Shown here one piece after another: positions 975 to 15,656 of a DNA stretch of 15,656 nucleotides (position 1 is its first letter; every line of letters starts with the position of its first letter). The DNA is from a bacterium. GTDB taxonomy: Bacteria > Sysuimicrobiota > Sysuimicrobiia > Sysuimicrobiales > Kaftiobacteriaceae. The translations under genes and the position numbers were made by a program. A model generated the notes under the pieces. It was not told the DNA's origin and searched no databases. It was given only the letters and a program-made list of their open reading frames with translations. The DNA lies in NCBI GenBank assembly GCA_044868695.1, contig JBIOWP010000142.1, positions 1 to 15,656 of the forward strand. Direction: 5' to 3'.

Positions 975-2729
975 ATGCTGGATCTTATGACCGGGGCGTC
1001 CGGCCCTGTAGTCGGCGTCACGCAAGGCAGGCCGGAGTTCTTGGCCAGGAAGTACGCGGTCAGTTCGAGCCACTATCTGGCCACGATGACCGGCCTGCGC
1101 ATGTTCGCGCTTGGGGGAAACGCTGCGGATGCGGGTGTGGCCGCTGGGATCGCGCTCAACGTGCTCGAGCGCCACCTGACAGATTTTGGCGGTGTGGCGC
1201 CGATCATGTTCTTTCGGCCCGGGATGTCGCGCCCTGAAACGATCGCCGGGGTTGGATGCTGGCCGCGCCGGCTGACCCTCGAGCGGTATCTCGAGCGGTA
1301 CGGGGGCGACATGCCGATCGGCGCGCCGCGGTACGTGACGCCGGCGGCGCCGGACGCGTGGTTGACGGCGTTGGCGCGATACGGCCGCCTGACGCTGGGC
1401 GAGATCCTGCAACCGGCATACGAATTGTGCGAAGGGTTCCCGGTCTACGGCCGCCTCGCGCGGGCGATTGCCAACCTGGCCTCCCGACTCCGTGAATGGC
1501 CTGCCAGCGCACGGGTCTTCCTGCCCAACGGCCGGCCGCCGCATGTGGGTGAAATCCTCGTGCAGCGCGAGCTGGGTAGCCTGTTTCGACGACTGATGGA
1601 CGTGGAGCGCGGCGCCGCGCATCGCGGACGCGAGGCGGCTATCATGGCGGCCCGGGACGAGGTCTACCGCGGCGAGATTGCGCACCTCCTTGCTGTCCAT
1701 GCCGAGCGGACCGGCAGCGAGTTGGACGCGGAGGACCTGGCTGCCTACCGTGTCGCCGTGGAACCGTCGATCTCGTCGCCGTACCGAGACGTGGAGGTAC
1801 ATGCCTGCGGTCCATGGTCACAGGGCCCGCTCCTGCCGATGGTCTTGAATCTGCTGCAGGGAACGAATCCGCGGCACCTGGGTCAGGGAATCGCAGCCTA
1901 CTTGCACTATCTCATCGAGGCGATCAAGCTTGCGTGCGCGGACCGAGAAGCTTTCTTCGGCGACCCGAATTCCGTCGACGTGCCGATCGCGGGGCTGCTC
2001 GATCCTGACTATTCGGACGAGCGGCGGCGCCTCATCGATCCGGCTCGCGCGTGCCCGCGGCTCCCGTTGCCCGGGAATCCGTGGCGGTACGAGGGCCGCT
2101 CGGGCCCCGCGGGACACGTTCCGGTTGTCGCCGCCGGCGCGCCGCAGCCCGATACGTCCTTTGTGTGCGCGATGGACGCCGATGGCAACGCCTTTTGCGC
2201 CACGCCATCCGACCCCGGCATGAGCGCGCCCCTCGTCGATGACCTCGGCATTATCATCTCAACGCGCGGGGCCCAGCTGTGGACCACGCCGGGACACCCG
2301 TCGGCGATTGCGCCCGGGAAGCGTCCGCGGTTGACGCCAAACCCCGCCATGCTCGTGGCGTCTGGGCAGGCCGTGATGCCCCTGGGCTGTCCCGGCGGCG
2401 ATGCGCAGGTTCAAGCGATGGTTCAGGTGGTAGTGAATGTGTTGGACTTTGGGATGAACGTCCAGGCCGCTATCGAGGAGCCTAGAGTCATCTCGGCGAG
2501 TTTCCCTTCGTCCTTTCATCCCCACCCGTACGAACCCGGAGTGGTACGCGTCGAGGGCCGCATCCCCCCGCAAGTGCGGAACCGACTCGCCACACTCGGT
2601 CATACCATCGAGGTGCTGCCCGACGTCGCGCCGGTGGTGGCCGCGGTCTGCGCGATTCGGCGCCGGGACGGCGGTGTGCTCGAGGCCGGGGCGGATCCTC
2701 GTCGCGAAAGTTATGCCGCCGGCTGGTGA
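975..2729 (+). CDS. Gamma-glutamyltransferase family Ntn-hydrolase (no signal peptide)
   Basis: 584 aa. GGNAADAGVA, DFGG, GPWSQG, EAIKLACADR, nucleophile site PD-TSFVCAMDADGN, PGKRP, GCPGG and C-terminal GADPRR motifs. GAGGT RBS upstream. Confidence 0.92.
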   Translation: MLDLMTGASGPVVGVTQGRPEFLARKYAVSSSHYLATMTGLRMFALGGNAADAGVAAGIALNVLERHLTDFGGVAPIMFFRPGMSRPETIAGVGCWPRRLTLERYLERYGGDMPIGAPRYVTPAAPDAWLTALARYGRLTLGEILQPAYELCEGFPVYGRLARAIANLASRLREWPASARVFLPNGRPPHVGEILVQRELGSLFRRLMDVERGAAHRGREAAIMAARDEVYRGEIAHLLAVHAERTGSELDAEDLAAYRVAVEPSISSPYRDVEVHACGPWSQGPLLPMVLNLLQGTNPRHLGQGIAAYLHYLIEAIKLACADREAFFGDPNSVDVPIAGLLDPDYSDERRRLIDPARACPRLPLPGNPWRYEGRSGPAGHVPVVAAGAPQPDTSFVCAMDADGNAFCATPSDPGMSAPLVDDLGIIISTRGAQLWTTPGHPSAIAPGKRPRLTPNPAMLVASGQAVMPLGCPGGDAQVQAMVQVVVNVLDFGMNVQAAIEEPRVISASFPSSFHPHPYEPGVVRVEGRIPPQVRNRLATLGHTIEVLPDVAPVVAAVCAIRRRDGGVLEAGADPRRESYAAGW

Positions 2730-2791
2730 TTGTCGAACACGGTGCTTTGCGATCTCATCAGGTGCAGCGACATTAAGCGGGGGGTGATGCA

Positions 2792-4342
2792 ATGATGCTC
2801 GGCAGGTGGTGGAAGATCGTTTCGCTCTTTGTCAGTGCGGCGCTCGTCCTCGCCGCGGGCTCGGCCGTGGCGACGCAGGCGCAGACGCCCCGCACCCTGG
2901 TCGTGGCCCAGGGCGCCGACATCGTCACCGGCGACCCGGCCAAGAGTACCGCGCTCGCGACCATTGCCGTCCTGGCAAACATCTACGACACGCTTATTCA
3001 CCGGGATGTCAGCCTGAGTCTCAAGCCCGGACTGGCGCTCTCCTGGCAGGCCGTCGACCCCACTACCTGGGAGTTCAAGCTGCGCAAAGGCGTAAGATTT
3101 CACAACGGTGAGCCCTTCAATGCCGAGGCCGTCAAATTCTCGTTCAACCGAATGCTGGATCCCGCGACGAACTGGCCGGGCGCCGGGTCCCTGCGGCTGA
3201 TCAAGTCGGTGACCGTGGTGGACGACTACACGGTACGATTCGCCACCTCGCAGCCCTGGCCGGTGTTGCCGCGGCTCCTTGGGTACTACGGGATGATTGT
3301 GCCGCCAGGTTACCTGACGCAAAGTGGTCCGGACGCGCTCATCCGTCGCCCCGTGGGTACCGGACCCTACCGCTTCGTGAACTGGGTCAAGGATGACCGC
3401 GTAGAACTCGAAGCCAATCCTGACTATTGGGGCGGCAGGCCGAAAATCGACCGCGTCGTCGTTCGCGTCATCCCCACGGATGCGGCGCGGGTTGCGGAAC
3501 TGCTGGCTGGGTCGGTTCAAATGGCCCCCCTCTTGCCGCCCGAACTGTTCAGTGCCGTAAGGACCTCATCGAAGCTGAACCTGTCCGTCGGCAAGAGTCT
3601 GAGTGTGTTCTTCGTCATCCTCAACATGGTCAACGTCCCCAAGGACAAACCGCTGGCCGATCCACGGGTTCGGCAGGCCCTCAATTACGCGATCGACCGC
3701 CAAGCGATCTTAACCAGCGTCATGCGCAACGTGGGTACGCCGGTGTCGACCTTCTGTACCGAGGTGATGGCGGGCTGCGACCCGTCCATTCCGCCGTTCT
3801 CGTACGATCCGGACAAGGCCCGCGTGCTGCTGCGCGAGGCTGGCTATGCGAACGGGTTCGACTTCAGCATCAGCGGGACGAGCGGCTCCTACCCTGGCGA
3901 CCGCGATATTGTCCTCGCTGTGGCCGATCAACTCACCCGCGTCGGGGTACGCACGAAAGTGGACATCACGGAGATCGGCGTTCAGCTGAAGGCCGTACTC
4001 GCTCGGGAGCTCCAGGAGGACGGCTGGTTCACGCGATTCACCGATTTCTTCGGGATCAGTACCATCATTCCGCTCCGAGCATTCTATTCGCCCGGCGAAT
4101 GGTCTCAGTGGCGACCGGGGCACGCCCCGTTCAACCAACTGGTCGAGGCGGCGCAGGCGGCCCCCGACGAGGCAAAACTGGCCGACATCTCCAGGCGCCT
4201 CCAGTTAATGTACAAAGATCAGGCGCCGGCCATCACGCTGTTTGGCGCGCCTAACGCCTACGGCATGAGCCGCGATCTGGAGTACACGCCCCGGCCGGAC
4301 CTGGAATTGTACCTGTTCGACGCGTCTTGGAAGAGTCGTTGA
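2792..4342 (+). CDS. ABC transporter substrate-binding protein, family 5 (DppA/OppA/NikA-like)
   Basis: Sec-type signal peptide without lipobox. IYDTLI, LALSW, FKLRKGVRFHNGEPFNAEAVKFS, PVGTGPYRF, DPRVRQALNYAIDR. Confidence 0.95.
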   Translation: MMLGRWWKIVSLFVSAALVLAAGSAVATQAQTPRTLVVAQGADIVTGDPAKSTALATIAVLANIYDTLIHRDVSLSLKPGLALSWQAVDPTTWEFKLRKGVRFHNGEPFNAEAVKFSFNRMLDPATNWPGAGSLRLIKSVTVVDDYTVRFATSQPWPVLPRLLGYYGMIVPPGYLTQSGPDALIRRPVGTGPYRFVNWVKDDRVELEANPDYWGGRPKIDRVVVRVIPTDAARVAELLAGSVQMAPLLPPELFSAVRTSSKLNLSVGKSLSVFFVILNMVNVPKDKPLADPRVRQALNYAIDRQAILTSVMRNVGTPVSTFCTEVMAGCDPSIPPFSYDPDKARVLLREAGYANGFDFSISGTSGSYPGDRDIVLAVADQLTRVGVRTKVDITEIGVQLKAVLARELQEDGWFTRFTDFFGISTIIPLRAFYSPGEWSQWRPGHAPFNQLVEAAQAAPDEAKLADISRRLQLMYKDQAPAITLFGAPNAYGMSRDLEYTPRPDLELYLFDASWKSR

Positions 4343-4385
4343 TCCGGCAATCCGCACCGAACGTCCAGCGGGTGCCGAACCAGCA

Positions 4386-5315
4386 GTGAGCGGCTATCTG
4401 GTCCACCGGCTGGCTCTTTCGTTGATCGCCATGCTGGGCGTGATCACGATCGTGTTCATCCTGCTGCACGTCAGCGGCGATCCCGCCTTGCTGCTCGTGA
4501 CGCAGGATGCGACGCGGCAGGACATCGAGCGGATCCGGCAGACCTACGGCCTGGATCGCCCGCTCTCCGTGCAATACGTGCGATTCATCGAGCGCGTCGC
4601 CCGCGGCGATCTCGGATATTCGTACCGGCAGGGCCTGCCGGTTACCGAACTGATCGCCGGCCGGATCAGCGCGACATTCAAGCTGGCCCTTGCTTCCCTT
4701 GCCGTGGCGATCGTGCTCGGGGTGACGCTCGGCATGGCGGCAGCCGTGCGGCGGGGGTCGGGAGTTGATACGACGGCCATGACGGTTGCGCTCCTCGGGA
4801 CGAGCATGCCGAGCTTTTGGCTGGGGCTGCTGCTGATCATCGTCCTCGGCGTCAAACTGGGCTGGCTTCCGGTCTCCGGTTACGGCGGTCTCGACCATCT
4901 CGTCATGCCTGCGTTCGTACTCGGCGGTTTCTATGCGGCACAGGTCAGCCGGCTCACGCGAACGAGCCTGCTCGAGGTCCTCGCTCAAGACTACATCCGC
5001 ACGGGGCGGGCCAAGGGCCTGAGGCCTCGTACGGTGCTGTTCAGACACGCCCTGCGCAACGCGGCGCTTCCGGTGCTCACGGTGCTTGGACTCAGCTTCG
5101 GGCAGATGCTTGGCGGAGCGATCGTCGTGGAGTCCATCTTCGCCTGGCCGGGCATGGGACGCCTCGCCGTACAGGCGGTGCTGGGCCGCGATTTCCCGGT
5201 CGTACAGGGCGTCACGATCGTCGGCGCGGCTGTGTTTCTCGCCGTCAATCTTACCGTGGATCTGATCTATGGCTGGGTCGACCCTCGCCTTCGAAGCGCC
5301 GCGCAGCGGGCGTAG
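4386..5315 (+). CDS. ABC transporter permease (DppB/OppB-like)
   Basis: GLDRPLSVQY, GDLGYS, MPSFWLG, EAA loop QDYIRTGRAKGL, VESIFAWPGMG, DLIYGWVDPR. Confidence 0.95.
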   Translation: MSGYLVHRLALSLIAMLGVITIVFILLHVSGDPALLLVTQDATRQDIERIRQTYGLDRPLSVQYVRFIERVARGDLGYSYRQGLPVTELIAGRISATFKLALASLAVAIVLGVTLGMAAAVRRGSGVDTTAMTVALLGTSMPSFWLGLLLIIVLGVKLGWLPVSGYGGLDHLVMPAFVLGGFYAAQVSRLTRTSLLEVLAQDYIRTGRAKGLRPRTVLFRHALRNAALPVLTVLGLSFGQMLGGAIVVESIFAWPGMGRLAVQAVLGRDFPVVQGVTIVGAAVFLAVNLTVDLIYGWVDPRLRSAAQRA

Positions 5316-6183
5316 CGCCGCGCGCGCGTCGCCGCTCCGCCGCCTCTTGCGTAGTCCCTCGGGGGCCGTTGGTTCTGCGCTCCTGGCCGTGATCCTTGCG
5401 GCCGGGTTTGGCGGTTCCTTCGTGACACCCTACGACCCGACCGCGCAGAATCTGAGCATGACGGTGCATCCGCCGTCATTGACGCCAGTGCGGGGTAGCG
5501 TCCACCTGCTCGGCACAGATCAATTGGGACGCGACATCTTCAGCCGGCTGTTGGTCGGCCTTCGGATCTCCCTGCTAATGGCGCTCACGGTCGTTCCGGT
5601 CTCGCTGATGCTCGGCCTCGCGGTCGGGATGGTGACTGGCTACCGCAGCGGCTGGCTCGACGTTGCGCTCATGCGCCTCGTCGATGCTCAACTATCCATC
5701 CCAACGCTGCTTCTCGCGGTGGCCGTGGTCGCGGTGCTCGGGACGGGGCTGTTCCAAATTGTGGCGGTGCTGGTGATCGCGGGGTGGCCGGGTTACGCGC
5801 GCGTCGTGCGCGCCGAGGTCCTGGCCCTGCGCCAACGCGAGTTCGTGGCGGCGGCCCGTGCGGTGGGCGCCTCCGACCTCCGTATCCTCGCTCGCCACGT
5901 CCTGCCGAACCTGCTCCCCACCATGCTGGTGCTGGGCACCCTGCATCTGCCGGTGGTGATCATCTTCGAGGCCGCGCTGAGCTTCCTCGGCCTCGGCATC
6001 CAACCGCCGATGCCCAGCCTGGGCCAGATGATCGCCGGGGCGCAAAGCCTGTTGTGGCAGGCCTGGTGGATGCCGGTGATACCCGGGGTCGCCATCACGC
6101 TGGTGGTGCTCGCGTTCAATCTGTTGGGCGACCGCATGCGGGACGTGCTTGATCCACGGCTGCGGGGACTCGGACCTGCGTGA
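5269..6183 (+). CDS. ABC transporter permease (DppC/OppC-like)
   Basis: HLLGTDQLGRDIFSR, EAA loop EFVAAARAVGAS, FEAALSFLGLG, FNLLGDRMRDVLDPR. The start is approximate (47-nt overlap with the upstream gene). Confidence 0.93.
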   Translation: MAGSTLAFEAPRSGRSAARASPLRRLLRSPSGAVGSALLAVILAAGFGGSFVTPYDPTAQNLSMTVHPPSLTPVRGSVHLLGTDQLGRDIFSRLLVGLRISLLMALTVVPVSLMLGLAVGMVTGYRSGWLDVALMRLVDAQLSIPTLLLAVAVVAVLGTGLFQIVAVLVIAGWPGYARVVRAEVLALRQREFVAAARAVGASDLRILARHVLPNLLPTMLVLGTLHLPVVIIFEAALSFLGLGIQPPMPSLGQMIAGAQSLLWQAWWMPVIPGVAITLVVLAFNLLGDRMRDVLDPRLRGLGPA

Positions 6184-6325: not shown

Positions 6326-7120
6326 CTAGCGCCGCCTCTGTGCCCGCCGCCACGTCACCGGCAGTCGCATCATCTGATTCGGCTCACGGGCATCGTACAG
6401 CCAGCGGAGTGCGGATTCCAGGATGTCCCGCTGCGTCTGATTGTCCTGCGGCTCGCCGTAGGGATCGCCGTACGGGAATCGCACATATAGCGCACGCGGA
6501 ACCCCCACCCCGAAGGTCACAACCGGGGCCATCGTGACGCTCACCGTCGCGATGCCGGCATGCTCGAGAACATTCTGGGCAAGTCCCACGGACCGGTGGC
6601 ACATGGGTCAGCCGGGGGAGAACACCGCCGCATCCACCCGATCCGATTCAAGCCGGGCGGCCAGCGCCGGCGTGGTGACCCAACGGAACCTGCTCGGATC
6701 GGGGATGAATCCCATGCACCCCCCATGCCACGCGGCGACGCTCCCTACCACCCCTTCGGCCGCGAGCTCGCGGAGGCGGTCGATCGGGAACATGCAGTTC
6801 GGATCTTTGTCGGGATCCGTGTGATCGTAGTGATCGTGCGCGAACCGCAGCCGGCCGGCATCCACGTCGCCGGAGATCCAGCGGATCGAGTCGTCCCCGC
6901 TGTGGGACTCAAGATCGAACGGCGGGTCGCCCACCACGTAGACACCGCCTGTGGACACGAGGGCGACGCGGGCTGCCGGTAGCGGCTTGGTGAGACGGTG
7001 GAAGGCGATCGCGCTGTTGCGGACGGGCACGAAGTGTCCGGTATGCGACACGAGGGACCGCTCGTTGTAATCCGCCCACTGAGCCTCGAGGTCAGGGATC
7101 TCGAACGGAATAGGATCCAT
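6326..7120 (-). CDS. Selenoprotein of the PrdB/GrdB (D-proline/glycine/sarcosine/betaine reductase component B) family, 264 aa, Sec171 encoded by in-frame UGA
   Basis: ORFs 6608-7120 and 6326-6604 share a frame and are separated only by TGA (6610-6608) and CCC. Read-through gives DAAVFSPG-U-PMCHRSVGLAQNVLEHAGIATV, matching the PrdB-type UxxCHRS...E-xAGI pattern. The N-terminal part has VALVSTGGV, HYDH, DPNCMFPIDRLRELAAEG and MG motifs; the C-terminal part has VPRAL..FPYG..YG. Confidence 0.88.
6580..6595 (-). promoter_or_regulatory. Putative bacterial SECIS hairpin
   Basis: mRNA after UGA reads CCCAUGUGCCAC-CGGUCC-GUG-GGACUUG. GGUCC pairs with GGACU, closing a G-initiated apical loop (GUG) that starts 19 nt after the UGA. 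Folded by eye only. Confidence 0.6.
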
Positions 7121-7152
7121 TAGCGTGGAGCCCGCCTCATCGCTCGCGGCCC

Positions 7153-7995
7153 TCAGTCATACCGGTACGGGAACAGGGGAACACCCGGATGATTGGCGGG
7201 GTGGCCGATCGGAAACGGCGTGTCGTAGCTGTCGATCTGATACCAGGTGTTCTCCGGCCCGTGGATCATCGCGTCCTGCCAGAGATCCACTGGAACGCCC
7301 CGCGTCTCGACCTCCTTGATCGCCCCGTCGGCGTCGGCCACGTCGAACGCGATGTGGTTGAGCCGCGTGGCTTCGATGTCATGACGGAGGAAGAGAGGGA
7401 GAAGGCTCACCTGCCTCCCGACGGCATCCACCGGCGCATCGCCGTACTTGATCGTCTGGATGAACTCCCCGCGGCGGTCGAAGGTCTGGACACGATCCAT
7501 CCCAAACACCTCGGCGAGCCAGGCCAGCGTGGGCGCATGGGATACGACGTCGAGGGCGACGTGATGGACTCCCCGCACGAGACTGCGGACGGCCGGATCC
7601 CACGCCACGTCCGCCATCCGGGTCGACGGGTCGCCGGCCGGCGCCAGGCGCGGACCCAGCACGCTCGTGATGCTCACCGCGAGCCCGCCGGGGGCCCGGA
7701 TGATGTCCTCACCGTCGACTTCGTAGCCGCGCCGGCGCAGTCCGGCAACCGCCTCATTCACCGGTACGTCGACGGCGATGGCGATGTAGCGCAGGCGGCA
7801 GCGGGGGATGAACGGCCGGTTGTAGAGCACGAGCAGCGGGTCGCCCCCGCCGGGGACACCGACCGTCCTCACGTACTCTCCACGCCAGTACCCGTGGGCG
7901 AGCAACTGCAGGCCAAAGACGTCGCGCAGATATCGCTCCATACGCGTAGGGCTGGACAGCTCCAGTGCCACATGCGCGACCCGCTGCGCCCGCAC
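7153..7995 (-). CDS. Tandem VOC (glyoxalase/extradiol dioxygenase superfamily)-like protein, paralog C
   Basis: 280 aa, GTG start 2 nt after the upstream stop. Repeated beta-alpha-beta-beta-beta style modules AHVALEL..DVFGL, RYIAIAV..LRRRGY, HHVALDV..EVFGM, NHIAFDVAD..IHGPE..YQI. Clearly homologous to two other ORFs in the window. Confidence 0.78.
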   Translation of the reverse strand: MRAQRVAHVALELSSPTRMERYLRDVFGLQLLAHGYWRGEYVRTVGVPGGGDPLLVLYNRPFIPRCRLRYIAIAVDVPVNEAVAGLRRRGYEVDGEDIIRAPGGLAVSITSVLGPRLAPAGDPSTRMADVAWDPAVRSLVRGVHHVALDVVSHAPTLAWLAEVFGMDRVQTFDRRGEFIQTIKYGDAPVDAVGRQVSLLPLFLRHDIEATRLNHIAFDVADADGAIKEVETRGVPVDLWQDAMIHGPENTWYQIDSYDTPFPIGHPANHPGVPLFPYRYD

Positions 7996-7997
7996 CG

Positions 7998-8903
7998 CTA
8001 GCCCCCGACCTTGGCGGGCGTCTTCGGCTCGTAGCGGGTGAAGGCGTCGCGCCCCTCGGGCGGGTACGGGATGAAGGTCACCCCCGTCGGGTTCGCCGGG
8101 TGATCCACGGGGAACGGGGTGTCAAAGCTATCGATCTGGTACCAGACCTCCTCAGGCCCGTGGATCATCGCGTCCTGCCACAGATCGACCTTGGGGCCTC
8201 TCGCCTCCACCTCCCGGATCGCCCCCTCCGAGTCGGCCACGTCGAAGGCGACATGATTGAGCTCCACACGGGTCGTCCCACGCCGCAGGAACTGCGGAAA
8301 GATGCCGCGCCTCCGGCCGATCGGGTCTCTCGGAGCGTCGCTATATCTAACGCTGGAGATGATCTCGCCGCGGCGATCGTGGGTGGAGCGGTGGTCGAGC
8401 CCGAAGGCCGCTTCCAGCCAAGCGAGCACGGGCTCGTGCTCGGGCACATCGGGAGCCACGTGATGGATCCCCCGCCAGAGGCAGGGAAGATCCGGATCGA
8501 CGGGCTCGGCGGCCATCTTCGTCGCCGGATCGTGCAGCGGCGTCGGGCGCGGGGCCGTGTAACTGTCGATCTTGAGGTGGAAGTCGAAGGGTGCGATTAC
8601 GATGTCTTCGCCGTCCACCTCGTAGCCGCGGCGGCGCAGGTCCGCAACCGCGTCGTCGATCGATCCGCCCACGGCCAGCCCGACGTGGCGCAGGCGCCCC
8701 CGAGGGATGAAGGGGCGGTTGTAGAGGATGAGAAACCCGGGGTTCTCGCGCTGATGGTGCGGGGAGCCGACCACCCGGACGTACTCGCCCTTCCAATACC
8801 CGTGCCGAAGTAGCTGCAAACCGAAGGCATCCCGAAGCCATCGCTCCATCCGCGTGGGTGACGACAGCTCAAGCGCTACGTGCGTTATTCCCACCACCCT
8901 CAT
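7998..8903 (-). CDS. Tandem VOC-like protein, paralog B
   Basis: 301 aa from the ATG at 8903 (MRVVGITHVALELSSPTRMERW), with AGGAGG RBS upstream. The start aligns with the paralog at 14431. The upstream part of the 636-aa ORF call is spurious. Confidence 0.8.
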   Translation of the reverse strand: MRVVGITHVALELSSPTRMERWLRDAFGLQLLRHGYWKGEYVRVVGSPHHQRENPGFLILYNRPFIPRGRLRHVGLAVGGSIDDAVADLRRRGYEVDGEDIVIAPFDFHLKIDSYTAPRPTPLHDPATKMAAEPVDPDLPCLWRGIHHVAPDVPEHEPVLAWLEAAFGLDHRSTHDRRGEIISSVRYSDAPRDPIGRRRGIFPQFLRRGTTRVELNHVAFDVADSEGAIREVEARGPKVDLWQDAMIHGPEEVWYQIDSFDTPFPVDHPANPTGVTFIPYPPEGRDAFTRYEPKTPAKVGG

Positions 8904-8958
8904 CGCTGCTGCCCTCCTCTTATTACCTCCGGTCCGCCCAATCTCGCCTGCCACTGGA

Positions 8959-8974
8959 GGTATGATATGATACC
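8959..8974. promoter_or_regulatory. Palindromic operator / internal promoter, site 1
   Basis: GGTATGATATGATACC is 1 mismatch from the palindrome GGTATGATATCATACC. On the minus strand it reads TG-G-TATCAT, resembling an extended -10. It lies in the intergenic gap upstream of paralog B. Confidence 0.6.
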
Positions 8975-9013
8975 AATTCACCCGGCGCGTCCGGACCCCT
9001 TCCCCGCGCGTGC

Positions 9014-9973
9014 TCAGTCCTGCCGGCTCTGCGCGATGATGTCCACCCCCGCATAGCGGCTGAACGCTGCCGTCAACGCGGCAGTGACCGGCCCCGGGAT
9101 GGGCAACAGCACCTGGCCGTTGAGTCGTCTGACCGGCAGCACGGCATAGCTCGTGGCCGTGACGATGGCCTCCTCGGCTTCGACGAGCTGGCTGAGATGC
9201 ACCGGGCGGCGATCGACGGGGATGCCCGTCTTCGGAGCCAGCTGCAGGAGGACGCGGCGGGTCACACCCTCGAGCGCCACCGCGTCCGGCGGGGTGACAA
9301 GGCGGCCGCCCATGACGTACATGATGTTTGCGCCGTCGCTCTCCGTCACGTAGCCCCGTGCATCGACGAGCAGCGGAAGCGCCTCGGGCCGGAGATGCCC
9401 GATCTCCACGTGCGCCAGCGTCATCGCCAGGCGGCTGTGGGTTTTGGCCCGGGGATCGACGCCGCCCTCGGCGGGAATGCGAAGCGTGGGCACCTCGATG
9501 ATCAGGCCTTCCGCGTAATATCGGGCAAAGCGCTCGAACGCGATCGGGCGGCACCCGATGAGCACGGTGGGCGGACCTTCCGGCGGTGCCGCAAACGGCC
9601 CCGGCGTGAGCCCCCGTGTGATGCGGTGCGTGAGGATCACATCGTCGTGCGGACGCAGGAGGTGGCGGTTCCGGTCGAGGACGCCCAGCGTTAGCTCTTC
9701 GAGCTGGCGGCGGGAAAGCCCGGGATCGAGCCGCAGGTACTCGAGCGTGGCGAAGAGCCTGTCGACATGCCAGTCGAGATGGAAAGGCGCATGCCGGTAG
9801 GTGCGCGTGGCCTCGAAGGCGGCATCTCCCAGGATGAACCCCCGGTCCTGCGGCGAGATCCAGACCTCCGATTCCGGGACGAACCGTCCGTTCCAGTACA
9901 CTATCCACGGCGCGGCGTGCGCCGGGGCGCCGGACTGCGGCGCTTCACGTGACGTCACTCGATCCGTGGCCAT
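9014..9973 (-). CDS. PLP-dependent fold-type IV enzyme (branched-chain/D-amino-acid aminotransferase, ADC lyase family)
   Basis: YWNGRFVP, DRGFILGDAAFEATR, HVDRL, catalytic Lys in DPRAKTHSR, TESDGANI, LEGVTR, TATS. The start is ATG 9973 or TTG 9976, with GGAGG upstream. Confidence 0.9.
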   Translation of the reverse strand: MATDRVTSREAPQSGAPAHAAPWIVYWNGRFVPESEVWISPQDRGFILGDAAFEATRTYRHAPFHLDWHVDRLFATLEYLRLDPGLSRRQLEELTLGVLDRNRHLLRPHDDVILTHRITRGLTPGPFAAPPEGPPTVLIGCRPIAFERFARYYAEGLIIEVPTLRIPAEGGVDPRAKTHSRLAMTLAHVEIGHLRPEALPLLVDARGYVTESDGANIMYVMGGRLVTPPDAVALEGVTRRVLLQLAPKTGIPVDRRPVHLSQLVEAEEAIVTATSYAVLPVRRLNGQVLLPIPGPVTAALTAAFSRYAGVDIIAQSRQD

Positions 9974-9997
9974 CAATCGCTCCCCTCCCGCGTGTTG

Positions 9998-10897
9998 TCA
10001 GTGGCCGCGAAGCCGTACGTCCAGCGCATCGCGCAGGCCGTCTCCCACGAGATTGAAGCTCAACACTGTCAGCATGATCACGAATCCGGGGATGAGGGCG
10101 ATCCACGGGGCCAGCTCGAGGTACCCGCGGCCCTCCGCCACCATGACCCCCCATGACGGCGTCGGGGGCCGGATGCCAATGCCCAGGAACGAGAGGCTGG
10201 CTTCGGAGAGCATGGCCGTGGCGATCCGCGTCGTCACGAGAACGATGAGCGACGACGCGAGATTCGGCACGATGTATCGTAGCAGGATCCGGGCCTGGGA
10301 GGCGCCGACTGCTTCCGCGGCCAGGACGTAGTCGCGCTCCCGGATGCCCCGCGTCTCCGCGCGCAGCACCCGCGCGAACATCGGCACGCTCCCCACACCG
10401 ATCGCGACCATCACGTTCGTCAGCCCCGGTCCGAGCACGGCGATGAACGCCAGCGCCAGGAGCAGCAGCGGGACCGCCATGAGCATCTCGATGACGAAGT
10501 TCAGCAGGCGGTCCAGCGCGCCACCGGCGTACCCGGCGACGATCCCCATGGTGCCGCCGACCGCCGTAGCGATAATGACAACAACCACGCCGACGAGCAG
10601 GGAAATCCGCCCGCCCCAGATGACCCGGGAGAGGATGTCCCGTCCGAAGGGATCGGTCCCGAACAGATGGGTCCGAGACGGGGGCGACTCGAAATGCTCG
10701 ATGTCCTGCGCCGCCGGATCATAGGGGGCGACGACCGGCGCGGCCAGGGCGACGGCGATGAACATGGCCACGAAGAGTGCGCCCGCGCCGGAGCTCATCC
10801 GCGTCCACAGGACCGTCCGCCATAGGGCGAAGCGGCGGCGGGGCGCCGCTGCGGTAGCCTCCGCTCGGGGCAGACGGCCGACGCCCGCGTCGCTCAC
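9998..10897 (-). CDS. ABC transporter permease (DppC/OppC-like)
   Basis: HLFGTDPFGRDILSR, DYVLAAEAVGAS, EASLSFLGIG, PSWG, FNLVGDGLRDALD. GTGA overlap with the upstream gene. Confidence 0.95.
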   Translation of the reverse strand: MSDAGVGRLPRAEATAAAPRRRFALWRTVLWTRMSSGAGALFVAMFIAVALAAPVVAPYDPAAQDIEHFESPPSRTHLFGTDPFGRDILSRVIWGGRISLLVGVVVVIIATAVGGTMGIVAGYAGGALDRLLNFVIEMLMAVPLLLLALAFIAVLGPGLTNVMVAIGVGSVPMFARVLRAETRGIRERDYVLAAEAVGASQARILLRYIVPNLASSLIVLVTTRIATAMLSEASLSFLGIGIRPPTPSWGVMVAEGRGYLELAPWIALIPGFVIMLTVLSFNLVGDGLRDALDVRLRGH

Positions 10898-11832
10898 TGG
10901 TAGGAGGTCCGTGGGTCCAGGACAGTCAGTAGGAGATCGGTCAGCAGGTTCACCAGCACGATGGCCGTGCCGAAGACCAGGACCAGGACCTGGGTCAGCT
11001 GGAAGTCGCGGCTGTTGATGGCCGTGATCATCAACCAGCCCAGCCCCCGGCGCGCGAAGACGATCTCGACCACGACGGCCCCGGTCAGGAGATTGGCGAA
11101 CATCGTCCCGGCGGCCGCCGTCACGGGGATGGCCGCGTTTCGCAGGACGTGCTTCACTACGACGATCCGCTCCCTGAGCCCTTTCGCCCGCGCCGTCCGC
11201 ACGTAGTCCTGACCCAGCGTCTCGAGCGTGGCGGAACGTGTAAGCCGGGCGATGAGGGCCGCGAGGCCCAGCCCGACGACGGTGGCGGGCAGGACCAGCT
11301 GCACCAGCCCCGCGCCGGGCTGGGTGCCCCCGAAGATGGGGAACCAGTGCAAGCGGAAGGCGAAGACGTAAAGCAGGATGATGCCGATCCAGAAGGCCGG
11401 CGCGCTCAGCCCCAGCATGGCGCCGGTGAGCGACAGATAGTCCACGATCGTGTTCCGCTTCACCGCCGAGATCAACCCGGCCGGCACGCCGATGAGGACG
11501 GCGATGAACATCCCCGCCAGCCCCAGGTAGACCGTCGGCATGAAGTTCCGGTTGATATCCTCGATCACGGGCTGCTTGGTGCGGTAGGAGGTGCCGAAGT
11601 CCCCCCGCACCGCCTGCCCGACGAACCGCAGGAACTGCTCATAGATCGGACGGTCGAGCCCGAGGTCCTTTCGGATCTGCTCCAGCCGCTCTGGGGGGAC
11701 ATACGCGGCCTGCGTGTCGATGATGGCGTCCACTGGATCGCCCGGCGCGAGGTGCAGCATCAGGAAGACGCCGAGAAGAATCCCCAGCAGCGTCGGGACG
11801 AGCAGGAGCAGGCGATGACCGACGTTGCGCAT
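10894..11832 (-). CDS. ABC transporter permease (DppB/OppB-like)
   Basis: APGDP, LGLDRPIYEQF, GDFGTS, PAFWIG, QDYVRTARAKGL, VEIVF, LDPR. Confidence 0.95.
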   Translation of the reverse strand: MRNVGHRLLLLVPTLLGILLGVFLMLHLAPGDPVDAIIDTQAAYVPPERLEQIRKDLGLDRPIYEQFLRFVGQAVRGDFGTSYRTKQPVIEDINRNFMPTVYLGLAGMFIAVLIGVPAGLISAVKRNTIVDYLSLTGAMLGLSAPAFWIGIILLYVFAFRLHWFPIFGGTQPGAGLVQLVLPATVVGLGLAALIARLTRSATLETLGQDYVRTARAKGLRERIVVVKHVLRNAAIPVTAAAGTMFANLLTGAVVVEIVFARRGLGWLMITAINSRDFQLTQVLVLVFGTAIVLVNLLTDLLLTVLDPRTSYQ

Positions 11833-11854
11833 GCGCTGCCCTCAGCCCGGAAAG

Positions 11855-11889
11855 CCGTCGGCCCTGACCGGCGGCGTCGGGGCCGACGG
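11855..11889 (-). terminator. Intercistronic stem-loop between SBP and permease (partial terminator or mRNA stabiliser)
   Basis: CCGTCGGCCCTGAC (11855-11868) and GTCGGGGCCGACGG (11876-11889) form a 14-bp stem with one mismatch and a 7-nt loop. The mRNA continues CUUU, a weak U tract. Confidence 0.6.
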
Positions 11890-11897
11890 ATCAGGCG

Positions 11898-13439
11898 TTA
11901 GCGCTCGATGTCCATCCGGTAGAATTGCTGCTGCCACCACCCGAGGTTCGGCACCATCCCCTTCACGTAGCTGCGGGCGGCCGTGGCCTGGACGGTCGGG
12001 AACAGCGGCAGCGTGGGGAGGTCCGTGGCCAGCTGCTGCTGGATGCGCTTGAGGATGGCCACCCGCTGCTGCGGATTCGTCTCGCGCGCCTGGGTGTCGA
12101 TGAGCGTGTCAATCCCCCGGTCCCGGTACTGGCTCTGGTTGAGGACGGGGATCTCCCGGCCGTCCAACCGCGCCAGGTGCTGGCCGATCTCGGACTCGGT
12201 GGGATCGCCGGAGGTCAGGTCGAAGTCGCCGGCGCGCTGCCGGGGCCGCAGTGCGGCGCCGTCGAGCAGCTGGAGCTGCAGGTCCACCCCGACCTGCTTC
12301 CACATCGCCTGCACGAACGTCAGGATCGGGGGATGGTAGGCGGTATTGGGCGCGATCGCCGTCACGCGGAACCCATCGGGATATCCGGCCTCCCGCAGCA
12401 GCTGGCGCGCCTTGGCCGGATTGTACTCGTATCTGGGCACATCGCTCGTGAACCCATAGATCGCCGGAGGGATATGGGAGTGCGCGATCTGGCCTAGGAT
12501 GCCGGCCCCAACGCGCAGCATGATCGTCCGTCGGTCGAGGGCGTGTAGCATCGCCCGCCGCACGCGCACGTCGTTGAACGGCTTCCGCGAGTTGTTCAGC
12601 GTGAGTTGGTACACGCTGGCCGCGAACTGATCGTCGGCGTTCACGACAACATTGGGCGTGCGGCGGAGCAGCGCGATGTTCGGGAACTCACGCACGACCA
12701 TCATGTCGAGCTCTCCGGCGCGGAACGCCAGCACGGAGACGCTCTCTTCCAGGATGACCCGCATCTCGACCTCATCGATCTTGGGCCGGCCGCCAAAATA
12801 CTGGTCGTTGGCGACGAGCAGCGCCCCGCCCCGCACCTCGGCCCGGGCCACCCGGTAAGGGCCGGTGCCGATCGGACGGATGCAGTGCGAGCTCCCCCGC
12901 TCCTGGATCGCGCGGCGGTTGACGATGGCCGTGAACGCGGAGTTCGCGATAGTCACCAGGAAGGCCGGGAACGGCTGATCGAGCGTCACCCGGACCGTGC
13001 GCGGGTCGAGGATCTCAATCGACTTCACGCGGCGAAGGTCAGCGGAGCTATTCGCCCGCGTCTCCGGATTCAGCTGGCGTTCCCACGAGTATTTCACGTC
13101 TTCGGCCGTGAACTCCCCGTAGTTCTCGTGCCAGCGCACGCCGGAGCGGAGGTGGAACGTGAATACGGTGTTGTCGGGGCTCACGGTCCAGCGTTCCGCC
13201 AGGTCCGGCTCCACTTCCGAGAGGGACCCGGGCTTCTGCCGTACCAGCCCGTTGTACACGTTCATCGTAAGCTGCCAGTCCGGCAGACGGTTCGAGTAGG
13301 CCGGGTCGATGCAGGACGTCGGGAACGAGACGACCCACACCAGCCGCTTCCGTTCCTGAGCCTGCGCCAGCGGGAGCATTCCGGCCGCGAGCATCACAAC
13401 AAAGAGCCCGACCAGCATCCAGCGCGTCAGCCTACACAT
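11898..13439 (-). CDS. ABC transporter substrate-binding protein, family 5 (DppA/OppA-like)
   Basis: 513 aa from the ATG at 13439, with GGAGGAG RBS. Signal peptide ends AQA-Q. VYNGLV, PDLAERW, FHLRSGVRWH, FTAEDVKYS, PIGTGPY, DVRVRRAMLHALDR. Confidence 0.95.
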   Translation of the reverse strand: MCRLTRWMLVGLFVVMLAAGMLPLAQAQERKRLVWVVSFPTSCIDPAYSNRLPDWQLTMNVYNGLVRQKPGSLSEVEPDLAERWTVSPDNTVFTFHLRSGVRWHENYGEFTAEDVKYSWERQLNPETRANSSADLRRVKSIEILDPRTVRVTLDQPFPAFLVTIANSAFTAIVNRRAIQERGSSHCIRPIGTGPYRVARAEVRGGALLVANDQYFGGRPKIDEVEMRVILEESVSVLAFRAGELDMMVVREFPNIALLRRTPNVVVNADDQFAASVYQLTLNNSRKPFNDVRVRRAMLHALDRRTIMLRVGAGILGQIAHSHIPPAIYGFTSDVPRYEYNPAKARQLLREAGYPDGFRVTAIAPNTAYHPPILTFVQAMWKQVGVDLQLQLLDGAALRPRQRAGDFDLTSGDPTESEIGQHLARLDGREIPVLNQSQYRDRGIDTLIDTQARETNPQQRVAILKRIQQQLATDLPTLPLFPTVQATAARSYVKGMVPNLGWWQQQFYRMDIER

Positions 13440-13488
13440 GTGACCATCTCCTCCACGAGACATTCGTGCCGGTGTCGCTTCAGATTCT

Positions 13489-13504
13489 GTTGTGATATCA
13501 TACC
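13489..13504. promoter_or_regulatory. Palindromic operator / internal promoter, site 2
   Basis: GTTGTGATATCATACC is 2 mismatches from GGTATGATATCATACC. The minus strand contains -10-like TATGAT, about 50-65 nt upstream of the SBP start. Confidence 0.6.
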
Positions 13505-13582
13505 TTCCTCCCCGACAACCCAACCACCTCGAGAAGGTGGGAAAGCAAACCTGTCGCCCCTGCCCCCTAGGTTGGTGCAGAG

Positions 13583-14431
13583 TCAGCGGTTGTGATACGG
13601 CACCAGAGTCTGACCCGCTCGGTTTGCAGGATGATCCACGGGGAACGGTGCAGTGCGGCTGTCGATTTGATACCAGACCTCCTCGGGCCCGTGGATGATG
13701 GCATCCTGCCACAAGTCCACCGCGGCCCCTCGGGCCTCTACAACGCCGATCGCCCGCTCCGCGTCGTCCACCTCGAAGGCGATGTGGTTCAATCCGGTGT
13801 GGAACCGTCCGGGCCGGAGGAAGATCGGCAGAATGCTCATGCGCCGGCCAATGGCGTCCGTCGGCGAGCCGGGATAGTAGATCTGCGAGATGATCTCTCC
13901 GCGCCGGTCGTGATGCCGCTCGTAGGTCATCCCGAAGAGGTCCCGCTGCCAGTCCAGTAGCGCCCGGGGGTCGGCCGCATCGACAGCCACATGATGGATG
14001 GACCGCCACAGGCAGGGCAAATCGTCGTCAACCGGCTCGTCGGCCAGCACCGTCGCCGGATCGCCGACCGGCAGGAGGCGCGGGACCGTGTGGTGATCGA
14101 TCTTCACACGGAGGTCCCCGGGACCCGTGAGCAGGTCCTCCCCGTCCACCTCGTATCCCCGGGAGCGCAGGCCAGCCACGGCCTCCTCGACGGGCTCGTC
14201 CACGCCGACGGCGATGTGGCGGAGCCGGCCCTGGGGAATGAAGGGGTGGTTGTAGAGGTGGAGAAAGCCGCGACGGTCCCGATCGCCAGGCACTCCGACA
14301 ACCCGGACGTACTCGCCCTTCCAGTATCCGTGCCGCAGGAGCTGCAGCCCGAAGACGTCCCGGAGCCAGCGCTCCATCCGGGTCGGCGAGGAGAGCTCGA
14401 GCGCCACGTGCGTGATCCCCTCCACTCGCAT
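13583..14431 (-). CDS. Tandem VOC-like protein, paralog A
   Basis: 282 aa, AGGAGG RBS overlapping the upstream TAG. THVALELSSPTRMERW, RHIAV, HHVAVD, NHIAFEV, DLWQDAIIHGPEEVWYQID. Confidence 0.8.
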   Translation of the reverse strand: MRVEGITHVALELSSPTRMERWLRDVFGLQLLRHGYWKGEYVRVVGVPGDRDRRGFLHLYNHPFIPQGRLRHIAVGVDEPVEEAVAGLRSRGYEVDGEDLLTGPGDLRVKIDHHTVPRLLPVGDPATVLADEPVDDDLPCLWRSIHHVAVDAADPRALLDWQRDLFGMTYERHHDRRGEIISQIYYPGSPTDAIGRRMSILPIFLRPGRFHTGLNHIAFEVDDAERAIGVVEARGAAVDLWQDAIIHGPEEVWYQIDSRTAPFPVDHPANRAGQTLVPYHNR

Positions 14432-14442
14432 GTTGCGGCCTC

Positions 14443-15656
14443 CTAGTGAAACCCTCCGTCGGCGACGACGAGCCGGCCGTCGCGGAGGACTGCTCGGACG
14501 TCCCTCACCCGGCCGATATCCTCGAACGGATCTCCGGCGACGATCGTGATGTCGGCGGCTTTGGCCGGTTCCAGCGTCCCGATCTCGTCCTTAAGCCCCA
14601 CCGCCTCGGCTGCTAGGCGCGTCGCGCCGGTGAGCGCTTCGCGCGCCGTCGCTCCGGCGCGGACGAGCAGTTCCAGCGTCAGTGCGTACTCCCCGAAGGG
14701 TACAAGACTCCACCCCGCGTCCGTGGAGGCGACGAGTCGGACGCCGGCCCGGAGCATTCGACCGTAGTTGTTCAATCGCGCCTCCCAGGTCCGCTGCCTC
14801 GTCTCCCAATAGACCCGCTCCGTGGGACCCAACGCGGCCCACCCTGCGCGCGCACGCTCCAGGCTGCGGTAGGGCCCGGTGAGAGTGTGCCCGATGAAGA
14901 TACCCTGCTCGGCGATCCGGTCCACCAGCGCCGCATCGTACCCTACTTCGTCCCGGGACCGGTACAGGGAGGCGTGCTCGATGCCGTCCACGCCGGCCAG
15001 CGTTGCCCGGCGAACCGCCTCGATTGTATTCGCGTGCACGGTCACCTGCGTCTCATGGGAGCGCGCTTCGCTCACGGCTTCCGTGAGCTCCGCGACGCTG
15101 TACGTCGGGATCCAACTGTGGGTCCGCGGCGTGCCGCCCCCTTCCCCCACGACCTTGAACATGTCGACGCCGACCCTCCACAGGCGGCGGGCGACGCGGC
15201 GGATGTCCGAGACGGTATCGGCCTCGCCCCCCAGGTAGTACATGTGGCCGCCGGTAACAGTGATCGGGGAGCCGGCGGCGACGATCCGGGGCCCGGAGAG
15301 CCCACCCCGGGCGATGTGGTCGCGCAGATCCAGGACGACGCGACCCCGGCTGCCCAGGTCACGCACCGTGGTCACGCCGGAGGCGAGCGCGCGCTGAGCG
15401 TTGCGCACGGCCGTCAGCAAGAGCTCCGTGTCCGTGGCGCCCACGGTAAAGGTGTCGTTGGGCGTCCCATCTCCGGGCCAGGACAGGTGCACGTGGGTAT
15501 CGATCAGCCCCGGCAGGACCGTCGCCTCGCCGAAGTCCAGCACGTTTGCATCGCTCGGCGGCAGGGCGGCCCGAGCTACGCACTCCACCACCCGGCCCTC
15601 GTGTGGGATGGGACGGACGGCCCCGTCCTGGAGGACGGGGCCGTTCTCATCCGAGA
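14443..15656 (-). CDS. Metal-dependent amidohydrolase (Xaa-Pro dipeptidase-like subgroup), 5'-truncated by the window
   Basis: PGLIDTHVH (HxH), GVTTVRDLG, GPRIVAAG..ITVTGGH, FKV (Lys bridge), VHA, IEHA, STDAG, GTLEPAKAADI. The frame stays open to the edge, but the last ~58 nt appear inverted (see findings). Confidence 0.92.
   Translation of the reverse strand, partial: SDENGPVLQDGAVRPIPHEGRVVECVARAALPPSDANVLDFGEATVLPGLIDTHVHLSWPGDGTPNDTFTVGATDTELLLTAVRNAQRALASGVTTVRDLGSRGRVVLDLRDHIARGGLSGPRIVAAGSPITVTGGHMYYLGGEADTVSDIRRVARRLWRVGVDMFKVVGEGGGTPRTHSWIPTYSVAELTEAVSEARSHETQVTVHANTIEAVRRATLAGVDGIEHASLYRSRDEVGYDAALVDRIAEQGIFIGHTLTGPYRSLERARAGWAALGPTERVYWETRQRTWEARLNNYGRMLRAGVRLVASTDAGWSLVPFGEYALTLELLVRAGATAREALTGATRLAAEAVGLKDEIGTLEPAKAADITIVAGDPFEDIGRVRDVRAVLRDGRLVVADGGFH

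Follow-up and report, generated by a model that had tools for sequence, protein, structure and literature searches.

A predicted PrdB-like selenoprotein linked to a two-domain VOC family in a putative catabolic island

How could a PrdB-like selenoprotein act where no pyruvoyl partner is encoded beside it? The question is raised by a 15,656-nt stretch of DNA (the window) from a bacterium of the Kaftiobacteriaceae, in which a PrdB-like gene stands among genes for VOC proteins and a peptide-type importer (Table 1). A previous sequence-only reading had described nine co-oriented genes with the selenoprotein gene in last place, and all nine indeed lie on the minus strand with mostly small gaps (11, 143, 65, -4, 24, 110, 2, and 32 nt from the amidohydrolase to the PrdB-like gene). 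It had also reported a window free of PrdA/GrdE, GrdA, GrdC/D, and thioredoxin, and a scan of 15 window genes returned no match to any of these. The ABC importer that it listed stands as a conserved part of the system, but the nine-gene run holds no ABC ATPase gene. The gene system extends past the window, whose final ~60 nt are inverted when set against a close relative and against contigs from two sequencing runs; this inversion is most likely an assembly artefact.

Table 1. Features of the window, listed along the gene run and followed by predicted elements.
Feature	Position	Strand	Remark
Amidohydrolase, metal-dependent, Xaa-Pro dipeptidase-like	14443-15656	-	Accessory; truncated at the 5' end, final ~60 nt inverted
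VOC1, two-domain VOC protein, conserved subtype D	13583-14431	-	
Family-5 solute-binding protein	11898-13439	-	52-88% identical to orthologs from other VOC islands
Opp/Dpp-type permease B	10894-11832	-	
Opp/Dpp-type permease C	9998-10897	-	
Fold IV PLP enzyme, class IV aminotransferase-like	9014-9973	-	Accessory; conserved in a single further island
VOC2, two-domain VOC protein, conserved subtype B	7998-8903	-	
VOC3, two-domain VOC protein, conserved subtype C	7153-7995	-	32 nt upstream of selenoprotein gene
PrdB-like gene, predicted selenoprotein, 264 aa, VOC-linked subfamily	6326-7120	-	
In-frame TGA, predicted Sec codon	6608-6610	-	UGA/Cys correspondence; Sec machinery in genome
SECIS-like hairpin	6580-6596	-	7-pair stem, GUG apical loop, loop start 18 nt past TGA
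16-bp palindrome, predicted operator	8959-8974		Upstream of VOC2-VOC3-selenoprotein
Second palindrome copy, predicted operator	13489-13504		Upstream of binding-protein gene

The PrdB-like gene and its in-frame UGA

The PrdB-like gene is predicted to encode a bacterial selenoprotein. Reading the TGA as Sec yields one 264-residue frame containing U171-P-M-C174, and the protein matches PF07355 and TIGR04483 on both sides of the TGA. The coding frame is likewise conserved on both sides, and the UGA aligns with Cys in homologues. Among 120 homologues listed of the 439 found, 89 stop exactly before the Sec position, one stops elsewhere, and 30 span it, most of these carrying Cys at that position. 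The Cys three residues past Sec is kept in homologues, and two close paralogs among the matches listed have neither Sec nor Cys. The genome encodes selA, selB, selD, and tRNA-Sec. The SECIS-like hairpin covaries, with two-sided changes in five of its seven pairs (consensus of 14 homologous stretches); folding of single sequences was no better than that of shuffles (z of 0.02, -0.40, and -0.21).

The structure predicted for the protein has a pLDDT of 95.3. No solved relative was found by sequence, nor at E 0.001 by Foldseek, and the best structural match of the model (VIA Z 9.0) falls among common alpha/beta folds. Fusion of a small helical island protein to a PrdB-like protein in P0109 was considered and rejected, with an hhalign probability of 1.2%, no homologues of greater length, and weak Atlas matches. 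The gene bzdT of benzoate clusters may be another orphan PrdB-like gene, though a literature search gave no confirmation.

Linkage of VOC and PrdB-like genes across genomes

The selenoprotein gene lies at most one gene from VOC genes in six of eight assessable settings, Chloroflexota included, a count that leaves aside seven distant VOC loci (L027-L030 and L043-L045; 26-31% identity) and three loci that are too short (L031, L034, and L041). The setting L035/L037/L042 has a single VOC gene and no selenoprotein gene within the 11-13 kb available, genome G024 carries its VOC and PrdB-like genes on separate short contigs, and the PrdB-like gene adjoining the VOC genes of L032 is frameshifted and of a second type. 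PrdB-like orthologs above 60% identity are confined to genomes with the VOC family: they occur in 3 of 94 genomes of the same phylum and, in the class of G094, in 2 of 401 genomes, both of which carry the VOC family. The VOC-linked selenoproteins form one branch (support 98), and 14 of 74 VOC contigs match one in the selenoprotein list by size in nt, compared with a mean of 1.4 when shifted. No VOC-PrdB fusion was found within the length ranges searched. The sequence-only reading was prepared to give up the system if the two families failed to co-occur in other genomes; because they do co-occur, across two phyla, it was not refuted on this ground.

The conserved core, comprising the VOC family, the PrdB-like subfamily, and the importer, is narrower than that proposed earlier. 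The fold IV PLP enzyme, once counted as part of it, recurs in a single further island (G044), and four genomes that lack the VOC family encode homologues of 55-59% identity to it. The amidohydrolase adjoins VOC1 in close kin only; both enzymes are local additions. Other islands have class I/II or DegT aminotransferases in place of the fold IV enzyme, and each long locus has PLP enzymes close to its VOC genes. This recurrence would suit a PLP enzyme that replaces the pyruvoyl subunit, its aldimine activating an amino compound for Sec attack while the VOC proteins serve elsewhere in the pathway. The explanation is improbable, since PLP folds and subfamilies differ between islands (fold IV, class I/II, HisC-like, DegT) and the fold IV enzyme of the window is missing from most of them. 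That enzyme matches PF01063 and stays below cut-off for all NCBIfam subfamilies (BCAT, DAAT, and ADCL class); as to substrate clues, 0 of 21 island proteins reached an NCBIfam cut-off. The island also holds a Rieske ferredoxin and 2-hydroxyacid dehydrogenases, and a PF00756 esterase adjoins VOC or selenoprotein genes in L018, L031, L032, and L075.

An operator-like palindrome occupies each of the two widest gaps of the run, which makes a single transcript doubtful. Its recurrence suggests several co-regulated units within a larger catabolic island. A looser 12-mer pattern gave nine genome matches, as many as expected by chance (6-12), leaving the 16-mer alone informative. In 14-mer scans the island contained 4 of 4 sites in G044, 0 of 1 in G024, 1 of 4 in G095, and 1 of 5 in G094, the last being intragenic. 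Scans for sigma-70 promoters and terminators returned 0 and 1 sites, a chance level, and Rfam gave no match.

The VOC and PrdB-like genes are very probably the conserved core (the module) of a catabolic island that is likely co-regulated. Their patchy distribution (3/94 and 2/401), as in a mobile island, could instead mark them as passengers of one transferred block without a common function. There is little likelihood of this, as the pairing persists through altered gene order and orientation and down to about 50-60% identity, and the units are marked by the same palindrome. Orphan PrdB-like selenoproteins are a known family; on the pairing with the VOC family, literature searches found no publication.

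Comparison with pyruvoyl-dependent reductases

The PrdB subunit of D-proline reductase (TIGR04483), which functions with PrdA in Clostridium sticklandii and C. difficile, is homologous to the PrdB-like protein over residues 30-258, and the two have a similar size and a UxxC motif in common (motif per PMC13188914). In contrast to PrdB, the protein scores 163 bits against a TIGR04483 cut-off of 300, no pyruvoyl proprotein was found in the assembly, and the neighboring genes encode VOC proteins and an importer. Protein B of glycine, sarcosine, and betaine reductases (GrdB, GrdF, GrdH) and the fluoroacetate FarB/FarE system have the same Sec domain, but the 264-residue protein equals only the C-terminal half of protein B (full length ~430 residues), matching its profiles at positions ~212-425 only, with 49-53 bits. 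Unlike these reductases and the FarB/FarE system, the present system has yielded neither a GrdE-type subunit nor GrdA.

PrdA/GrdE and GrdA were not found in the 95%-complete assembly, with the 19.1 kb directly past the window lying outside view. This interval separates the window from contig C10, and the assembly lacks at least the first of its genes. The PF09338 proprotein had no match in the four module genomes (G000, G044, G094, and G095), the control for this search being positive in 24 of 94 phylum genomes, and none was detected across 187,789 nt of island loci, again with working controls. GrdA was found in 0 of these four genomes and in the control genome G027; unassembled DNA remains. 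The earlier proposal of a Sec enzyme working without a pyruvoyl partner agrees with the assembled genome, where none was found. Its second stated ground for refutation, a canonical prdA/grdE just outside the window, is dismissed for the DNA covered, the adjoining 19.1 kb apart. The 19.1 kb would leave room for a conventional B subunit of a Stickland-type reductase, with its pyruvoyl proprotein encoded in unassembled DNA. Such an arrangement is very improbable in view of the controlled searches of module genomes and island loci and of a score far below the PrdB cut-off.

FarE of the fluoroacetate FarB/FarE system has been described as lacking the pyruvoyl-forming cysteines, and a Schiff-base-free attack of Sec on fluoroacetate is a proposal for that system (PMC10838667). 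Consequently, there is a proposed precedent for a Sec that attacks without help from a Schiff base. Attack by Sec and cleavage of the selenoether belong to the chemistry of glycine and proline reductases, which favours a related reaction here; counting against it, the published reductase mechanisms include steps reviewed as undocumented in organic chemistry (PMC10298544).

The VOC proteins and a candidate Sec-dependent reaction

The VOC proteins constitute a small two-domain family that appears uncharacterised. Residues H147, H216, and Q255 of VOC1, along with four Arg, are invariant in 104 of 104 family sequences, and His/His/Gln is the predicted metal site. Judged from a quick-method tree, the three copies are conserved subtypes (B, C, and D) without sign of recent duplication. 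The fold resembles that of extradiol dioxygenases and HPPD (Z 19.8, rmsd 3.5, 234 aligned), catechol dioxygenases, HPPD, and hydroxymandelate synthase being the top matches. Type I extradiol dioxygenases, HPPD, and hydroxymandelate synthase share with the VOC family a fold of two domains and four VOC modules, in which the C-terminal domain carries two His, but identity to these enzymes is 12-16%, and each locus contains several conserved paralog subtypes. The metal triad of type I extradiol dioxygenases and HPPD is 2-His-1-Glu, which the VOC family does not display. Instead, Gln occupies the predicted Glu-ligand position in 104/104 sequences. Q255 was matched to this position by strand topology and the register of the motif rather than by a residue-level structural alignment, and profile alignments stop short of this residue.

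These fold matches bear on another possible role for the selenoprotein, that of a redox-maintenance partner keeping VOC metal or thiol enzymes reduced, with the VOC proteins performing their own, possibly O2-dependent, chemistry on 2-oxo acids made by the aminotransferases. The best matches use O2, a published list assigns PrdB a thiol-redox motif, UxxC (PMC1088965), the island includes the Rieske ferredoxin, and one VOC setting has no selenoprotein gene nearby. A general reductant, however, would not need a pairing exclusive at the subfamily level, the predicted third ligand is Gln instead of Glu, and two Anaerolineae genomes also carry the island. Anaerolineae are mostly anaerobic. On balance this role is rather unlikely.

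Further members of the superfamily invite comparison. Pfam glyoxalase matches occur in the VOC proteins, sequence likeness to methylmalonyl-CoA epimerases and glyoxalases is weak, and an Atlas search with VOC2 returned generic VOC clusters only. Glyoxalase I, methylmalonyl-CoA epimerase, and FosA/FosB are built from VOC modules and their His ligands align with those of the family, whereas the family proteins are twice as long with no conserved Glu ligand seen. In principle, as the sequence-only reading had suggested, the selenol could take the place of glutathione by adding to a 2-oxoaldehyde, which a VOC protein would isomerise as glyoxalase I does before an esterase frees the hydroxy acid. 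The VOC fold and glyoxalase-like matches are compatible with this route, as are the PF00756 esterases and 2-hydroxyacid dehydrogenases. It is nonetheless quite unlikely: NCBIfam glyoxalase and epimerase models reach 20-23 bits against cut-offs of 115-148, and although Glu ligands act as bases in glyoxalase I and methylmalonyl-CoA epimerase, column counts give no conserved Glu on the strands where glyoxalase I has its two catalytic ones. Moreover, the resolving Cys kept three residues past Sec is needless for a non-redox carrier.

The preferred explanation is that the island probably breaks down an imported amino-acid-like compound. The Opp-type importer would bring a modified amino acid or a small peptide into the cell, from which hydrolases (M24, M55, M20, amidohydrolases, isochorismatase-like) would release the amine, and PLP aminotransferases and NAD-dependent dehydrogenases would convert it to a 2-oxo or other carbonyl compound. 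Since this intermediate would bring its own carbonyl, the carbonyl and the VOC metal are proposed to stand in for the pyruvoyl Schiff base as activator. The VOC metal site would bind and activate the intermediate, and the selenoenzyme would reductively cleave its carbon-heteroatom bond: Sec171 may displace the leaving group, Cys174 would resolve the selenoether to give a Se-S bond, and a cellular dithiol would reset the latter. That Sec, independently of any pyruvoyl group, cleaves the carbon-heteroatom bond of an intermediate bound to VOC is a tentative prediction, possible but short of probable. The predicted reaction resembles that of FosA/FosB, where the metal activates the substrate for thiol attack, although profile matches are weak (E 4e-4 or worse) and the proposed nucleophile here is a protein Sec. 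Whether the His/His/Gln VOC proteins form a hetero-oligomer that replaces the pyruvoyl protein as substrate-activating subunit is doubtful; were it so, they and the PrdB-like protein would constitute a new class of selenoenzyme, a lyase/reductase in which Sec, assisted by a metal, breaks the carbon-heteroatom bond of some unrecognised amino compound from soil or water.

Environmental UxxC selenoproteins named 'proline reductase PrdB' amount to 42 genes in the Sargasso Sea and 235 in GOS, and the accessible portions of these papers give counts and a clostridial function without gene context (PMC1088965, PMC2398784, PMC9402790). In marine metagenomes few selenoprotein genes are as common as PrdB-like ones, and the function that these papers ascribe to them is the clostridial one, which requires PrdA. 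The present protein belongs to the same family but to a distinct, rare, VOC-tied branch, and this rarity limits its reach. One PrdB-like branch now has a defined partner family and a conserved importer with a screenable ligand, and the module also offers a candidate regulator of FadR type, a candidate operator, and easily expressed natural Cys homologues such as P0096. Pyruvoyl-independent PrdB-like chemistry thereby becomes directly testable.

Linkage of VOC and PrdB-like genes

The gene for the PrdB-like predicted selenoprotein closes a minus-strand run of nine genes (gaps of 11, 143, 65, −4, 24, 110, 2 and 32 nt), and gene calls and gap lengths bear out the sequence-only reading of a co-oriented, mostly close-set run. 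By profile matches, three of the products are VOC proteins and three are importer parts (a family-5 binding protein and two permeases); the others are an amidohydrolase, a fold IV PLP enzyme and a PF07355 protein. The source assembly, G000 (2.59 Mb, 162 contigs, 95% complete, 67% G+C), contains the window as the whole of contig C142. Compared with contigs of sequencing runs X1 and X2 and with the relative L040, the final ~60 nt stand in inverted orientation, which most likely reflects an assembly artefact at the contig end; the first amidohydrolase residues as read here are therefore most likely artefactual.

Translation of the in-frame TGA as Sec gives a 264-aa frame with U171-P-M-C174, and codon-position G+C is similar on both sides of it. 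Among the best 120 of 439 homologues, 89 stop exactly before the aligned codon, one ends elsewhere and 30 span it, mostly with Cys. G000 encodes selA, selB, selD and tRNA-Sec. The consensus of 14 homologous stretches contains a SECIS-like hairpin (seven pairs, GUG loop) with two-sided changes in 5/7 pairs; single-sequence folding of the region was no better than shuffles. The protein scores 163 bits against the PrdB model (cut-off 300) and 49–53 bits against the C-terminal half of the GrdB/F/H profiles. Its structure model is confident (pLDDT 95.3), and sequence and structure searches returned no clear solved relative. In two close paralogs (P0093, P0094) Sec and the resolving Cys are both replaced (Asp, Gly); these are possibly non-catalytic subunits.

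Thirty loci were examined for linkage; after removal of seven distant VOC matches and three too-short loci, the remainder and the window made up eight settings. The predicted co-occurrence of the two families in other genomes held, a PrdB-like gene lying at most one gene from VOC genes in six of the eight, across two phyla. The VOC family occurs in 3/94 genomes of the phylum and 2/401 of the class of G094 (Anaerolineae), and selenoprotein orthologs above 60% identity occur in exactly these genomes, although G094 and G095 were picked up through the VOC search and are not a blind sample. Matches were found in 26 of the 401 class genomes (the unpublished genome G440 among them), the other 24 at 44% identity or less. 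Contig sizes shared between the VOC and selenoprotein homologue lists (14/74, 1.4 expected) agree with linkage. In the selenoprotein tree, the VOC-linked members group together in a single branch (support 98). It is very improbable that the genes are passengers.

Features of the window and arrangement of VOC and PrdB-like genes in compared settings
Feature or setting	Position	Observation
Toxin–antitoxin pair	340-875	ParE-type and Phd/YefM-type; low-G+C stretch (55-57%), contig start
Convergent unit (plus strand)	975-6183	Gamma-glutamyltransferase-family protein, family-5 binding protein, two permeases; likewise no ATPase gene
Selenoprotein gene (minus strand)	6326-7120	
SECIS-like hairpin	6580-6596	
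In-frame TGA	6608-6610	
VOC3	7153-7995	
VOC2	7998-8903	
VOC1	13583-14431	
16-bp palindrome, two copies	8959-8974, 13489-13504	
Inverted stretch	15593-15656	
Second PrdB-like TGA gene (L007)	G000 C52:19103-20211	44% identity
G000 (near-identical L036)		PrdB-like gene within one gene of VOC genes
G044		Two PrdB-like copies within one gene of VOC genes
G094, G095 (Chloroflexota)		PrdB-like gene within one gene of VOC genes
L033		PrdB-like gene convergent to VOC genes, CMD gene between
L032	L032:4305-4670	PrdB-like gene by VOC genes; second type, frameshifted (decay or sequencing error)
G024		VOC and PrdB-like genes on different short contigs
L035, L037, L042	L035:1357-6153	Single VOC2-type gene, two DegT aminotransferases, PrpD/MmgE, short-chain dehydrogenase
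L075	L075:866-1680	PrdB-like gene, frameshifted (decay or sequencing error)

The sequenced stretches of L035, L037 and L042 contain no selenoprotein gene and represent a second context for the VOC family.

Core, accessory genes and regulation

Of the proposed module, the VOC, PrdB-like and importer genes recur, and the fold IV PLP enzyme and amidohydrolase fall outside the core. Binding-protein identity is 52–88% in L023, L024 and L026; the supposed peptide-type ABC importer retains its family-5 binding protein and two permeases, but the nine-gene run contains no ATPase gene. The amidohydrolase adjoins VOC1 in close kin only. The PLP enzyme appears in one other island, with 55–59% homologues in four VOC-less genomes, and PLP activation of the substrate is unlikely. 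Genes common to the islands of both phyla encode an M24 hydrolase (77–78% identity), class I/II aminotransferases, dehydrogenases of the DUF1932, Zn and 2-hydroxyacid types, a regulator of the FadR type and a helical protein of ~95 aa. All 21 island proteins compared with NCBIfam models scored below cut-off.

Contig C10 of G000 (L087) carries a CMD/PcaC-like protein, two isochorismatase-like proteins, an amidohydrolase-2 and Rieske pair, M24 and MFS genes, and the beginning of a second binding protein. The rest of that protein is encoded at one end of C52, where the helical protein and the second PrdB-like TGA gene come next. A small helical protein of no known family (about 95–100 aa) is also found in L024, L025, L033, L075 and L107, its gene often adjoining the selenoprotein gene. 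Like the window, with its gamma-glutamyltransferase (GGT)-family gene in the convergent unit, G044 has a GGT-family gene (~30% identity) downstream of the selenoprotein genes.

At up to three mismatches the palindrome has only three matches in G000, both window copies and one in C10 (simulated genomes: 0–3, and none at up to two mismatches), a count that is partly circular because the consensus derives from the window. In a forward test on G044 both new sites lay upstream of island genes; the scan performed poorly in G024, G094 and G095. Given the two copies in the window, the nine genes are more likely to form three co-regulated units than one transcript. The island FadR-type gene is only a candidate regulator, since the palindrome has longer GT-AC spacing than the typical FadR consensus (PMC4494728).

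Pyruvoyl partner, VOC site and candidate chemistry

Profile searches for the pyruvoyl proprotein family PF09338 gave no match in the assemblies of G000, G044, G094 and G095; the same search found it in 24/94 phylum genomes, with one match in G024 adjoining a separate GrdB-type gene. Two proprotein queries matched 4/5 control loci but neither G000 nor any of 22 island loci (187,789 nt in total). GrdA was not found in any of four module genomes tested (control G027 positive). These results on prdA, grdE and grdA cover the assembled contigs; a further 19.1 kb, outside the searched DNA, lies between the window and C10. A run-X1 contig of 21,766 nt joins the two (positions 1–999, right window end; 20110–21766, left end of C10). 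At least part of the stretch is missing from the assembly, because DNA matching the genes that precede the L040 amidohydrolase was not found in G000. A PrdA hidden there would escape the G000 searches, yet the negative results in the other genomes and island loci make it very unlikely. In many genomes of the phylum, a GrdB-type TGA gene is accompanied by a shorter PF09338 protein that covers only profile positions 1–386 (G005 C61, G006 C1, G038 C161, G055 C16 and others), possibly a non-canonical reductase B complex.

A word-indexed search returned 91 VOC proteins, 89 of them near full length and 47–82% identical; an exhaustive profile search found only 21 representatives among 1.84 billion. 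The model (pLDDT 92.4) shows the same two-domain fold as catechol 2,3-dioxygenase and HPPD, at 12% identity (Z 19.8, rmsd 3.5, 234 aligned). H147, H216, Q255, D243, W253, S258, R176, R177, R196 and R206 are invariant in 104/104 sequences. H147 and H216 align with metal ligands of VOC enzymes; model and motif register put Q255 on the last strand past a G-P-E-E turn, the position at which VOC enzymes have a Glu ligand. Because Q255 is placed by strand and register, His/His/Gln is a predicted metal site; distant relatives (P0214, P0221–P0223; ~33% identity) keep it. In these relatives the VOC domain is apparently repeated in tandem. A glyoxalase-like role is doubtful. In a quick tree VOC1–3 each fall in a branch of their own, and every one of these branches also includes a single copy from each of G044, G024, L032 and L033. 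They are old subtypes that have stayed side by side, an arrangement suggestive of distinct roles or of a hetero-oligomer.

In glycine and proline reductases Sec attacks carbon and the selenoether is then cleaved, giving a Se-S bond (PMC10298544); for fluoroacetate, a Schiff-base-free Sec attack has been proposed (PMC10838667). Given no pyruvoyl partner, a closely linked, predicted metal-binding family with four invariant Arg, and aminotransferases and dehydrogenases nearby, reductive carbon-heteroatom cleavage is tentatively favoured, each catalytic step being one that we infer: the VOC site would hold a carbonyl-bearing anion and the predicted Sec would cleave its carbon-heteroatom bond. Redox maintenance by the selenoprotein is a less probable reading.

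PrdB-like selenoprotein genes have long been known to be abundant in marine metagenomes (PMC1088965, PMC2398784, PMC9402790). A 2026 review names grdA-grdB and prdB-prdC as the usual operons, and its searched passages contain neither 'glyoxalase' nor 'VOC' (PMC13188914); those of the phylum paper contain no 'selen', 'grd' or glycine/proline reductase (PMC11604079). The VOC and PrdB-like pairing was not found in the published literature, in a search thin on subscription journals. The module is real and conserved, and apparently undescribed; its novelty is the VOC partner of a PrdB-like selenoprotein.
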